Shown: positions 45,062-63,747 of the stretch, piece by piece
How the letters are laid out: the number at the start of each line of letters is the position of its first letter
How positions within the stretch are numbered: position 1 is the stretch's first letter
Source of the DNA: Chitinophagales bacterium
GTDB taxonomy: Bacteria; Bacteroidota; Bacteroidia; Chitinophagales; Saprospiraceae
Length of the DNA: 64,000 bases
NCBI GenBank assembly: GCA_038226035.1
Contig: JBBRQS010000003.1
Location: forward strand, 61,351-125,350
Direction: 5' to 3'
Notes under the pieces: model-generated
Told to the model about the DNA's origin: nothing
What the model saw: the letters and a program-made list of their open reading frames with translations, nothing else
Databases searched by the model: none
Position numbers and translations under genes: made by a program

Positions 45062-47098
45062 ATGAAAATTTTGTTAATTACGATTTTTTTTGCCCTTGCA
45101 CACTTTATTATGGATGCTCAGAAAAATTTACCGGTCTATACCGGTACGGATTTAGGCTTGACATATACACCCGAATTTTCTTTCTTCAGAATTTACGCAC
45201 CGAGTGCCGTAAATGTTTCGTTAAACTTCTATAAAAATGGTTTGCCGGATAAAAATACCGCGGCAAATGATCTAATTGAAAAGGTGATAATGGAAAAAGC
45301 AGAAGATGGTACTTGGATTTACCGCGCTGCGGGCAACAGAAAAGGTCAGTTTTATACTTTTCAAGTTACGCAACCCAACAGCATGATAAACGTCGAGGTG
45401 CCGGACCCCTACTCGAAAGCGGTCGGTGTAAATGGTTTGCGCGCTGCCGTAATTGATATGAAAGATACGGAACCGACGGACGTCGGATTTCAAATTTCGG
45501 ATGTCGGAAAAAATCCGGTACCCGAAATTCGAAATCCGACAGATGCTGTGGTATACGAGTTGCACGTGCGCGATGCTTCGATTGCCACTCATTCGGGCAT
45601 AAAAAATAAAGGGAAATTTTTGGGGCTTACTGAAACGCATACAAAAAATATTGCCGGATTGAGTACAGGCTTAGACCATATTAAAGAACTCGGCGTAACA
45701 CATGTGCATTTGTTGCCGTGTTTCGACTATTACACAGTGGATGAAACAAAATGTGCCGACCCTAATTATAAAAAATATAATTGGGGTTACGATCCAATGA
45801 ATTATAATGTGCCCGAAGGTTCGTACTCGACCGATCCGTATGATCCCGTTACGCGCATCAAAGAATTTAAAACGCTGATTCAAGCGATGCACGCCAAAGG
45901 TTTGCGCGTTGTAATGGATGTCGTTTACAATCATACGATGTTTGGAGAAGAATCGAATTTCAATCAAATAGAGCCGCATTATTATTACCGGTTTTTGCCG
46001 GACGGTACGTTTGCTAACGGTTCGGGTTGCAAAAACGAAACGGCTTCGGAAGCACCGATGATGCGGAAATTTATGGTAGAAAGCACGGCGTATTGGGTAA
46101 AAGAATACGGTATTGATGGTTTCCGCTTCGATTTAATGGGTTTGCACGATATAGAAACCATGAATTTAATTTCTAAAACCTTGCACGACATCAAACCCGA
46201 TATTCTTTTATACGGTGAAGGCTGGACGGCAGGTGACACACCGCTTCAATTGGAGCAACGCGCCGTAAAAGCGCACGTACCGCAATTGGATCGCATCGCC
46301 GCTTTTTCCGATGATATGCGCGACGGTATTAAAGGTTCCGTTTTCGACGGACGTGATAAAGGTTTCGCAAGCGGCAAAACAGGTCAGGAAGAAACAATAA
46401 AATTCGGAGTAGTAGCCGCCACTCAGCATCCGCAAGTAGATTATTCGCGCGTTAATTATTCAAAACAATCTTGGGCGACGGAACCGTTTCAGTGTATTAA
46501 TTACGCCGAATGTCACGATAATCATACGCTTTGGGACAGATTACTCAACTCAAATCCGAATGATGATGAACCGACGCGCATAAAAATGCACCTGTTGGCG
46601 CAAACTATTGTACTGACGGCGCAGGGTATTCCGTTTTTACACGCCGGCACCGAATTTTTGCGCACTAAACAAGGTGTTGAAAATTCTTATAATTCGCCCG
46701 ACAGCATCAATGAAATGGATTGGGATAGAAAAACCCGATACTTAAACGTATTTGAATACATCAAACAAATCATTGCTTTGCGCAAAAATCATCCTGCATT
46801 TCGTATGCCTTCAACGGCGATGATCGCCGAAAAATTGATTTTCCGGTCCCCAACCACCGCCGATAATTCCCCCGCAGACAATATTGTGGAGTACACCATC
46901 GGAGAACACGCGAACGGCGATACTTGGAAAAATATTCTCGTCATTTACAACGGTAACAATCGCGATGTGACTTTACAATTACCGGAAGGTAATTGGTGCG
47001 TAAAATTGAACGGTAAAACGGTTGATGAAAAAAATAAAAAAAATATTTCAAAAACCGTCGTCGTACCCGCCATAAGTGCAATGGTTTTGGTAAATTGA
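45062..47098 (+). CDS. pulA: type I pullulanase (GH13)
   Basis: YNWGYDP.NYNVPEGSYSTDP, VVMDVVYNHT, GFRFDLMG, YGEGW and YAECHDN conserved regions. Signal peptide. Confidence 0.9.
   Translation: MKILLITIFFALAHFIMDAQKNLPVYTGTDLGLTYTPEFSFFRIYAPSAVNVSLNFYKNGLPDKNTAANDLIEKVIMEKAEDGTWIYRAAGNRKGQFYTFQVTQPNSMINVEVPDPYSKAVGVNGLRAAVIDMKDTEPTDVGFQISDVGKNPVPEIRNPTDAVVYELHVRDASIATHSGIKNKGKFLGLTETHTKNIAGLSTGLDHIKELGVTHVHLLPCFDYYTVDETKCADPNYKKYNWGYDPMNYNVPEGSYSTDPYDPVTRIKEFKTLIQAMHAKGLRVVMDVVYNHTMFGEESNFNQIEPHYYYRFLPDGTFANGSGCKNETASEAPMMRKFMVESTAYWVKEYGIDGFRFDLMGLHDIETMNLISKTLHDIKPDILLYGEGWTAGDTPLQLEQRAVKAHVPQLDRIAAFSDDMRDGIKGSVFDGRDKGFASGKTGQEETIKFGVVAATQHPQVDYSRVNYSKQSWATEPFQCINYAECHDNHTLWDRLLNSNPNDDEPTRIKMHLLAQTIVLTAQGIPFLHAGTEFLRTKQGVENSYNSPDSINEMDWDRKTRYLNVFEYIKQIIALRKNHPAFRMPSTAMIAEKLIFRSPTTADNSPADNIVEYTIGEHANGDTWKNILVIYNGNNRDVTLQLPEGNWCVKLNGKTVDEKNKKNISKTVVVPAISAMVLVN
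45482..45540. repeat. 59-bp palindromic heptamer-type element lying in frame inside pullulanase
   Basis: gtcggatttcaaatttcgg (45482-45500) pairs with ccgaaattcgaaatccgac (45522-45540) at 18/19. Encodes VGFQISDVGKNPVPEIRNPT. Confidence 0.8.
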
Positions 47099-62940: not shown

Positions 62941-63747
62941 TTACTCTTCACAATATTCAAATGAAAAAACAGATTTAAAATGATTTTTCATTTTATTTTT
63001 TATTTCCTGCATATCCACCGGACGATTTAATTCAACGGCAAGCGAAGTCACGGATTTATCAGCCTCATCAATACCGCACGGAATAATATAATCGAAGTAA
63101 GATAAATCGGTGTTCGCGTTAAAAGCAAAACCGTGCATCGTTACCCAACGACTTAAATGTACGCCGATGGCGCAGATTTTTCGGAATCGGCGTTTCGGCG
63201 TTTCGGGATTTTCATCGACTATCCAAACGCCGGTGTAATCTTTTATGCGTATGCCGACCAAACCGTAATCCGAAAGTGTGCGAATGGCGACTTCTTCCAA
63301 ACTCCGGACGTATTTGTGTACGTCGGTAAAAAAACATTCCATATCAAAAATCGGATAACCCGTAATTTGTCCGGGACCATGAAACGTAATATCACCGCCT
63401 CTGTTTATCTTGAAAAACGTGGCGTTGCGTTGCGCAAGTTCCGTTTCGGTGTACAACAAATGCTCAATCGAACCGCTTTTACCGAGCGTGAATACGGGCG
63501 GGTGTTCGCAAAACCATAAATAATGGCGTTGTCGTGCTATGAGTTCTCGACGCTGTGCATCTGTTTTAATTTCGGGTTGCGTTGTGCGGATATTTTTTTT
63601 TCTCTCAATAACGGCGTTCAACAAAACAAACTGCTCTTCCCACGCTTCTGCATAAGGAACAAATACGCCGTCATCTCTGAAAGTAACGCGCGGCAAAATT
63701 ATTTCGGATTTCGGATTTCGGATTTCGGATTTCGGATATTCTGCCAT
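62941..63747 (-). CDS. lipB: lipoyl(octanoyl) transferase
   Basis: FCEHPPVFTLGKSG, RGGDITFHGPGQ and KICAIGV motifs. ATG at 63747 chosen. A TTG at 63696 would give a more canonical N-terminus. Confidence 0.85.
   Translation of the reverse strand: MAEYPKSEIRNPKSEIILPRVTFRDDGVFVPYAEAWEEQFVLLNAVIERKKNIRTTQPEIKTDAQRRELIARQRHYLWFCEHPPVFTLGKSGSIEHLLYTETELAQRNATFFKINRGGDITFHGPGQITGYPIFDMECFFTDVHKYVRSLEEVAIRTLSDYGLVGIRIKDYTGVWIVDENPETPKRRFRKICAIGVHLSRWVTMHGFAFNANTDLSYFDYIIPCGIDEADKSVTSLAVELNRPVDMQEIKNKMKNHFKSVFSFEYCEE
63701..63735. repeat. heptamer array (ATTTCGG)x5
   Basis: atttcggatttcggatttcggatttcggatttcgg, translated on the minus strand as SEIRNPKSEIRNPK inside the long lipB ORF. Confidence 0.9.

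Follow-up and report, generated by a model that had tools for sequence, protein, structure and literature searches.

The window, a 64,000-nucleotide (nt) stretch from the genome of a Chitinophagales bacterium (contig JBBRQS010000003.1), contains the gene of a type I pullulanase, and within that gene lies a 59-nt hairpin-forming element built from 7-nt repeats. The gene occupies 45062-47098 on the forward strand and encodes a protein of 678 amino acids (aa) of family GH13, with a CBM48 domain at residues 31-118 and a catalytic barrel beginning near residue 160, as judged from the open reading frame (ORF), Pfam, a structure match and an alignment. The Pfam matches PF02922, PF00128, PF21653 and PF11852 correspond to CBM48, the alpha-amylase catalytic domain, the pullulanase all-beta domain and a C-terminal domain that is below its cut-off; the CBM48 score is barely over its threshold. 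The closest solved structure, 6jeq_A, matches residues 18-654 (E = 1.3e-175), and the record names of relatives include "type I pullulanase [Saprospiraceae bacterium]". The architecture of a type I pullulanase is present: CBM48, a (beta/alpha)8 catalytic domain with conserved regions I-IV, and a C-terminal all-beta domain. An alignment of 20 sequences shows no variation in the GH13 blocks DVVYNH, GFRFDLMG, YGEGW and ECHDNH, so the pullulanase looks intact.

The palindrome of the element spans 45482-45540. Its outer left arm, gtcggatttcaaatttcgg (45482-45500), pairs with its outer right arm, ccgaaattcgaaatccgac (45522-45540), both assigned on the forward strand from sequence, fold and pair counts. 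The arms are complementary at 18 of 19 positions, and the 21-nt spacer between them folds into a 7-bp stem of its own (45502-45508 with 45514-45520) around the 5-nt loop AAAAA (45509-45513); this inner stem is conserved in five of five variants. One mismatched base, 45521, lies between the inner and outer stems in the variant alignments and folds. Taken whole, the 59 nt form a single interrupted hairpin in which 25 of 27 positions pair. Its folding energy as RNA is -34.7 kcal/mol, compared with -19.5 +/- 2.9 kcal/mol for shuffled sequences (z = -5.2), and none of 200 shuffles was as stable. The initial annotation had described these arms, their complementarity, the spacer hairpin and an in-frame reading through all of them, and the analysis bears it out: the 59 nt, a length not divisible by 3, are open within the 678-aa ORF and translate to VGFQISDVGKNPVPEIRNPT, residues 141-160. 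Rfam returned only generic miRNA hairpin models at 14.8-24.6 bits against cut-offs of 51-117 bits, far below threshold and meaningless here.

Both arms are made of tandem heptamers. Tandem Repeats Finder (TRF) reports a left array of 4.6 units of the GGATTTC family (CGGACGT CGGATTT CAAATTT CGGATGT CGGA; 45477-45508, L001 1916-1947) and, in inverse orientation, a right array of 4.1 units of GAAATCC (AAATCCG GTACCCG AAATTCG AAATCCG A; 45511-45539, L001 1950-1978). The extent first given, 45482-45540, is thus right for the palindrome, and the repeat-derived stretch by TRF is a little wider, about 64 nt (45477-45539). The outermost unit of each arm is an exact GGATTTC-family heptamer, while the inner units are variants at 1-2 nt, such as GGATGTC, which are present elsewhere in the family. 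One rare variant unit, AATTTC, is common to both arms and occurs only 1-3 times genome-wide.

With as many as 3 mismatches allowed, the window contains five matches to the arm pattern, where 0.13 would be expected. They are the two arms and three overlapping ones inside a single array at 63703-63735 by lipB, so the arm motif, whose heptamer had been pointed out from the sequence near lipB too, is found in the window at these two places only. The lipB-side array is an (ATTTCGG)x5 run of the same family at 63701-63735 (C3:125056-125083), next to the 5' end of the lipB ORF or just within it, with a minus-strand reading of PKSEIRNPKSE. It lies 35 nt inside the longest lipB ORF and would be translated only if the true start lies upstream of the array.

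Beyond the window, the element belongs to a GGATTTC/GAAATCC family, with which it has in common period-7 units, inverted order and many dispersed, lineage-specific copies. TTTCGGA occurs 1427 times in the genome, where about 261 would be expected of a random heptamer, and at least two tandem units are found at 242 loci, 34 of which carry both orientations. An exact 3-unit pattern has 46 matches here, between 0 and 3 in any one of 24 congeners, and no match in the two closest genomes or in 16 other genera of the order. The family is one of many: period-7 tandem arrays number 2061 genome-wide, compared with about 600 each for periods 6, 8 and 9. Family copies differ in length, with 2-7 units per arm, and have no conserved core; in any one array the variant units are homogeneous. 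Of the 34 inverted loci, 33 consist of a GGATTTC array, a loop and a GAAATCC array in that order, and the mirror order is nearly absent inside and outside ORFs. The pullulanase element is not among these 34, which come from the two-unit scan, and it has the same order, 5'-(GGATTTC)n, loop, (GAAATCC)n-3'.

Arrays of this family are stop-free in all six frames, which is why the element contains no stop codon. By longest-ORF calls, 76 of 132 TRF arrays of the family (58%) lie at least 60 nt inside an ORF. Families open in six frames (this one, as AAATCCG, along with AACGTCC and AACAGCC) are often inside ORFs, and families with stop codons are nearly all intergenic, with 5 of 96 arrays inside ORFs for AAATCGT, 4 of 75 for AATAATT and 1 of 52 for AATTATG. 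The in-ORF fraction of the array families follows their stop-freeness. Single-orientation in-ORF arrays are read in the sense GAAATCC (EIRNPKS) 41 times and in the opposite orientation 8 times, and a further 24 inverted in-ORF arrays encode ...ISDFGFR-loop-EIRNPKS.... The genome search suggested at the outset for further in-frame copies therefore yields dozens of them.

Within the protein, the element lies in the linker that joins CBM48 to the catalytic domain. The 20-sequence alignment served to build an AlphaFold2 model, which has a mean predicted local distance difference test score (pLDDT) of 78 and a predicted template modelling score (pTM) of 0.84. Residues 141-150 have a mean pLDDT of 48 and are coil except for one short helical turn; this low-confidence segment sits between a helix at 133-136 and strand beta-1 at 164-168 (AVVYELHVRD), which opens the barrel. 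The placement proposed in the initial annotation, a linker just before the DAVVYELHVRD block, agrees with the domain matches and with this model, where mapping the segment finds it as coil between CBM48 and beta-1. Residues 418-448 and 483-498 of the model also have pLDDT below 50 despite their conservation in the alignment, which probably reflects the shallow 20-sequence alignment.

Comparison with orthologs shows a replacement of the ancestral linker. In the window protein, 23 residues separate the invariant T136 and T160. A 16-residue linker with the consensus NPxGWxxDKSPxxxQK is found in 16 of the 20 aligned homologs; the relatives at 77-75% identity (P0003 and P0004) have 16 residues without the GW motif, and the 90% relative (P0002, locus L031) has 15, also without it. 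The NPxGWxxDKSPxxxQK segment is missing from the window protein, as the initial annotation had said of the GW segment, and no ortholog carries a homologous segment of the same length: theirs are 15-16 residues of unrelated sequence. The HMMER alignment to 6jeq has a net 7-residue insertion at the linker. Counted in DNA, the net gain comes to +24 nt relative to the 90% relative and to +21 nt relative to a linker of the usual 16 residues. The DNA on either side is about 90% identical to that of L031, and between these flanks about 64 nt in the window stand opposite about 40 unalignable nt. Because of this, the event is a linker replacement rather than a clean 59-bp insertion; of the insertion first suspected, the unrelated and longer segment stands (23 residues against 15-16) and the simple insertion does not.

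The 90% relative carries a repeat of its own at exactly the same place: a period-7 array of the unrelated unit (TAGCCAT)x4.4 by TRF, with 18 of 24 lag-7 comparisons matching (P < 5e-5 when shuffled sequences are scored at every lag between 3 and 12). The site in L031 forms no hairpin (z = +0.65). As a family among relatives, TAGCCAT gave a single match in 26 genomes, and a wider comparison of the window with L031 gave no further informative array sites.

Close variants of the pullulanase were then compared over the element. These are four further sequences in its 90%-identity protein cluster, from independent ENA, JGI and Logan assemblies; a metagenome scan for further close pullulanase relatives found only sequences of 43% identity or less. 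The element is present at equal length in all four, making five independent assemblies in all, so it is not an assembly artefact. In the three 98% variants the only difference within the element is at 45521, the mismatched position, which is C, A or T and encodes Pro, Thr or Ser; in the folds it pairs with A45501 only in the T variants. In the 94% variant, L062, 10 of the 54 stem positions are not as in the window. There are three double compensatory changes (G-C to C-G once, T-A to A-T twice), and besides these the variant repairs two mismatches, turns one G-U wobble into G-C and breaks one pair. The two lineages thus keep 25 (window) and 26 (L062) of 27 pairs, and L062 folds into a perfect 25-bp stem at -47 kcal/mol (z = -10). 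When ten random substitutions were placed on the stem in simulation, the probability of three or more double compensations was 0.002, and that of pairing as good as observed was 5e-6 to 5e-4. Over the same stretch 8 of 20 residues differ, in proteins that are 94% identical as a whole, which puts the change of the element peptide at about 7 times that of the protein. Since the stem is kept by paired changes while the residues differ, what is maintained is the palindrome in nucleic acid (DNA or RNA), not the peptide.

These paired changes could also be read as selection for a hairpin that functions at this site, where it might pause translation between CBM48 and the catalytic domain, determine RNase action or stability, or bind a protein as all members of the family would, with selection rather than templating keeping the arms complementary. 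The three double compensations, two repaired mismatches and the wobble turned to G-C would be expected of it, as would the confinement of free variation in the 98% variants to the mismatched base 45521. The site also falls exactly at a domain boundary, and family hairpins inside ORFs match those outside in stability (means of -0.45 and -0.415 kcal/mol per nt, respectively, with a median z of -7.4 for each group). However, neither the 90% relative nor any other ortholog has a hairpin at the site, and the same family occurs in dozens of unrelated genes and at intergenic sites with variable copy number and loops. On a 22-kb contig of a 95% relative, the hairpin within alaS is retained with two one-sided arm changes that are uncompensated. 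The L062 palindrome, perfect and free of G-U intermediates, is what templating of one arm on the other predicts. A selected functional hairpin, the main rival of the account favored below, is an unlikely explanation.

The same data bear on whether the palindrome could be due to chance, or be a native linker selected as protein that resembles the repeat by coincidence. Linkers between CBM48 and the barrel do vary in this clade, and P0002-P0004 lack the GW motif as well. Against this, no shuffle folds as well as the element, the window has the arm motif nowhere else but in the lipB array, each arm shows period 7 by TRF, and the peptide outpaces the protein while pairing is kept. For practical purposes, this explanation is refuted.

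The pullulanase is one of many genes carrying the family. In-frame hairpins are present in alaS, sucA, anmK, an acetoacetate-CoA ligase gene and an AddA-like helicase gene, and in-frame arrays in gcvP. The NCBIfam scores are strong (alaS 907 bits against a cut-off of 457, sucA 1167, gcvP 1393, anmK 603, and acetoacetate-CoA ligase 888 with its match split at the element), and the carriers are real genes. Further carriers encode a TonB-dependent receptor, a PepQ-like peptidase, a CcmF/NrfE-like protein, a molybdopterin oxidoreductase and a GHMP kinase. At 893 aa, AlaS is longer here than in most relatives (873-879 aa). Orthologs either do without such segments, which add 13-24 residues in this genome, or have arrays of other heptamers in their place. 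On the contig of the 95% relative, arrays have 8.7% substitutions, compared with 4.9% elsewhere, and one intergenic hairpin has been reshaped by indels.

Fourteen concatenated 200-aa segments around such elements were compared with the two closest genomes, and 13 were matched. At 6 of the 13 sites the element is seen as 10-24 extra residues (in the PepQ-like peptidase, AlaS, acetoacetate-CoA ligase, two membrane proteins and the TonB receptor); at one of these six (C32_33433) the orthologs hold a short array of the same family which is longer in this genome. At another 5 of the 13, the orthologs carry other heptamer arrays at the same aligned position: ACAACGG with AATACCC, AGTCAGC with AACTTTC, GAGCATT with CTCAAAG, TATGAGC or AGCTGAT, and GATTTTG (L034, L035, L038, L039, L041, L042, L048 and L054, compared with C13:12020, C17:5558, C10:130702, C3:34056 and C3:210991 of this genome, G000). 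In-ORF arrays occur at about 1 per 6 kb of coding sequence, so the chance of one within 60 nt of a given site is about 1%, and 5 of 13 is far above expectation. This suggests that permissive loops have been struck repeatedly, or that old arrays have been rewritten in place. The molybdopterin oxidoreductase orthologs in genomes G024 and G023 (L041 and L042, 1564-1639) have in addition an in-gene AGCTTTG/CAAAGCT hairpin about 200 nt upstream of the shared site, which is missing here.

The explanation we favor, with a probability of roughly 0.75, is that the element is a fixed copy of the lineage's own hairpin-forming GGATTTC/GAAATCC repeat DNA, tolerated inside the pullulanase gene, with its palindrome kept at the nucleic-acid level. 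The copy has displaced the ancestral linker between CBM48 and the barrel; the frame is kept and the rest of the enzyme is unchanged. One history that fits the lengths is the gain of a hairpin of about 53-55 nt together with an 8-10 nt duplication of the P-T-D-A codons, 63 nt in all, and the loss of about 39 nt of the old linker, leaving the observed +24 nt. The element would be a selfish or neutral passenger with no role in pullulan hydrolysis. Selection may purge copies that break genes, so that stop-free families with a mostly hydrophilic EIRNPKS reading persist in ORFs. Arrays would lengthen and shorten by slippage, and the second arm would most likely arise and stay complementary by fold-back template switching during replication or repair. 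Such fold-back copying would explain why both arms have a rare unit in common and why changes between lineages are paired.

A direct repeat that brackets the palindrome allows another history, in which a transposase inserted a discrete mobile unit, like a miniature inverted-repeat transposable element (MITE) or a Rickettsia palindromic element (RPE), with a target-site duplication of 8-10 bp. The left copy, CCGACGGA (45473-45480, codons P-T-D), has its partner 63 nt downstream, CCGACAGA (45536-45543), which overlaps the end of the right arm; both were assigned on the forward strand from the sequence. This repeat, complete at 10 of 10 nt in L062, and the arithmetic of 63 nt gained and 39 nt lost suit such an insertion, and the genome has nine transposase genes of the Y1 (IS200/RAYT) type. 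However, flanking direct repeats are not enriched at the 34 other family hairpins, where their distribution equals the control. The lack of a fixed length or core, the 2-7 units per arm and the homogeneous variant units are as slippage predicts, orthologous empty sites often have a heptamer-like seed already, and the Y1 genes lack flanking heptamer arrays. Insertion of a discrete mobile unit is thus quite improbable.

Several points nevertheless weigh against the favored account of a fixed and tolerated repeat copy. The bracketing repeat is complete only in L062 (CGACAGATGC, 10 of 10 nt, with the copies 63 nt apart) and matches at 7 of 8 nt in the window. The linker of the pullulanase ortholog from genome G023 has GATGTC...AAAATCC in common with the inner part of the element, leaving room for an older origin at the site or for growth in place from a seed. 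Because of that resemblance, and because flanking repeats are not enriched elsewhere, the insertion and deletion described above are a tentative reconstruction, one among several. The compensatory pattern comes from only two diverged lineages and does not separate arm-to-arm templating from selection on a functional hairpin. That the segment is translated is read from its intact frame and the conservation of that frame, and the genome-wide counts depend on crude longest-ORF calls (3187 ORFs, 84% of the genome).

The genome also contains genes that may be connected with heptamer arrays in general. Its six PF05635 genes or pseudogenes (23S rRNA intervening sequence (IVS) protein, S23p, Avd-like) are at C12:137937-138245, C19:16993-17301, C15:53465-53770, C22:32875-33165, C21:2714-3029 and C13:12997-13292, and all are bracketed on both sides, at 40-170 nt, by heptamer arrays. 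The unit family differs from gene to gene, and the arrays are clearly inverted in at least three. The families are other than GGATTTC, and four of them are abundant in the genome (AAATGGT, AATAATT, AATTATG and AACGATG); none of the six genes in this assembly has GGATTTC arms. Most of the 30 PF05635 genes in six relatives (L107-L136) are bracketed likewise, in some cases with 20-44 units per array. One such gene from a different genus of the order (L115; G034 C1:2623805-2624119) lies between two CAATGGG arrays of 42-44 units in direct orientation.

The PF05635 proteins are therefore candidates for a trans-acting partner of the arrays, as judged from gene neighborhood, and the bracketing shows no mechanism. 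It is conceivable, if on the doubtful side, that heptamer-armed hairpins are gene-less derivatives of an IVS-like element, and that an active, sequence-specific process, perhaps with the PF05635 protein, writes, copies or homogenizes arrays and keeps their arms complementary. This would explain why each lineage has heptamer families of its own and why nearly every PF05635 gene in the genus is bracketed. It would likewise explain the different arrays in the same loops of sister lineages (the pullulanase linker and 5-6 of the 13 sites) and perfect palindromes with changing sequence.

Two other kinds of gene were considered and set aside. The nine Y1 transposase genes stand alone and encode about 150-190 aa (C22:43766-44110, C6:100185-100529, C5:195044-195388 and six more). 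These RAYT-type genes (RAYT for transposases associated with repetitive extragenic palindromes) were rejected as drivers of the repeats, since none of the nine Y1_Tnp genes is flanked by GGATTTC-family arrays; three have short A/T-rich period-7 arrays of 2.0-3.3 units nearby, on one side only. The single reverse transcriptase gene of the genome, a 345-aa ORF at C1:226926-227963, looks retron-type from its YADD and VTG motifs. It was rejected as an array writer, with no PF05635 neighbor and a nearby array only at chance level.

To our knowledge, in-frame translated repeat DNA in essential genes is textbook material only for Rickettsia. Here, a free-living Bacteroidota genome has a 7-nt repeat family inside dozens of working genes, including those for the pullulanase, alaS, sucA and gcvP. 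Base pairing of the palindrome persists as the encoded peptide changes, and in sister lineages the same loops of the protein are built anew from other heptamers. The value lies more in this genome-wide phenomenon than in the single pullulanase copy. Segments of this kind inflate and confuse alignments and domain models, and array sites mark permissive loops that may be useful in protein engineering. The family also offers a tractable system for asking why 7-nt repeats are special in bacteria, and whether PF05635 proteins are involved.

Among known systems, the nearest in construction are the heptanucleotide simple-sequence repeats, including the short tandemly repeated repetitive (STRR) sequences of cyanobacteria (Calothrix, Nostoc). 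GGGAATC and GGGGATT repeats are described in Xanthomonas and Nostoc, and the published heptanucleotide families are reported to lie between genes in 89-93% of cases and to be under-represented in coding sequence (PMC4692102). TAACTGA repeats, which have stop codons in one orientation, are found in Beggiatoaceae, Cyanobacteria and some Bacteroidetes (PMC4679880); that paper cites Mrazek et al. 2007 on long simple-sequence repeats. The likeness covers the 7-nt unit, several unrelated unit families per genome, a strong period-7 excess, fast change of copy number and sequence between close relatives, and inverted pairs capable of forming hairpins. Unlike the published families, which are mainly intergenic, the dominant one here is stop-free in six frames and has 58% of its arrays deep in ORFs. 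In the literature on Saprospiraceae heptamers and Bacteroidetes heptanucleotide repeats no description of translated heptamer hairpins was found, in keeping with the initial annotation, which knew of no RPE-like in-frame elements in Bacteroidota.

Repetitive extragenic palindromic (REP) elements, their bacterial interspersed mosaic elements (BIME) with RAYTs, and MITEs are similar in being short dispersed palindromes in genome-specific families. REP elements, however, are extragenic, and the nine Y1 genes here are unlinked to family arrays; terminal inverted repeats with target-site duplications, the build of MITEs, are not conserved across the family, although the pullulanase locus has its bracketing direct repeat, and no parent insertion sequence was found. 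IVS elements with a PF05635 gene have a counterpart in this genome, where heptamer-armed hairpins with a gene in the loop exist beside gene-less ones; the pullulanase copy differs from them in its 5-nt loop without a gene.

The closest parallel in behavior is to RPEs, described as palindromic and in frame in many metabolic genes (Ogata et al. 2000, as reported in PMC10969869). As with RPEs, a palindrome family without its own transposase is dispersed through the genome of one lineage, with in-frame copies in unrelated housekeeping and metabolic genes that, judging from intact frames, would be translated into additional stretches of peptide and leave the protein intact. RPEs differ in being clean insertions of about 100-150 bp that fall into fixed sequence families with a conserved encoded peptide, in obligate intracellular alphaproteobacteria; the element here has 59-64 bp of tandem 7-nt units in variable number, replaced an old linker, and resides in a free-living Saprospiraceae-like Bacteroidota host, and the two would not be expected to be related in sequence. 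The resemblance to RPEs drawn in the initial annotation thus stands for behavior, in-frame palindromes in many genes, and fails for build, with its tandem heptamers, replacement and 59-64 bp. The pullulanase element behaves like an RPE without being a member of the RPE family, from which its length and build set it apart.

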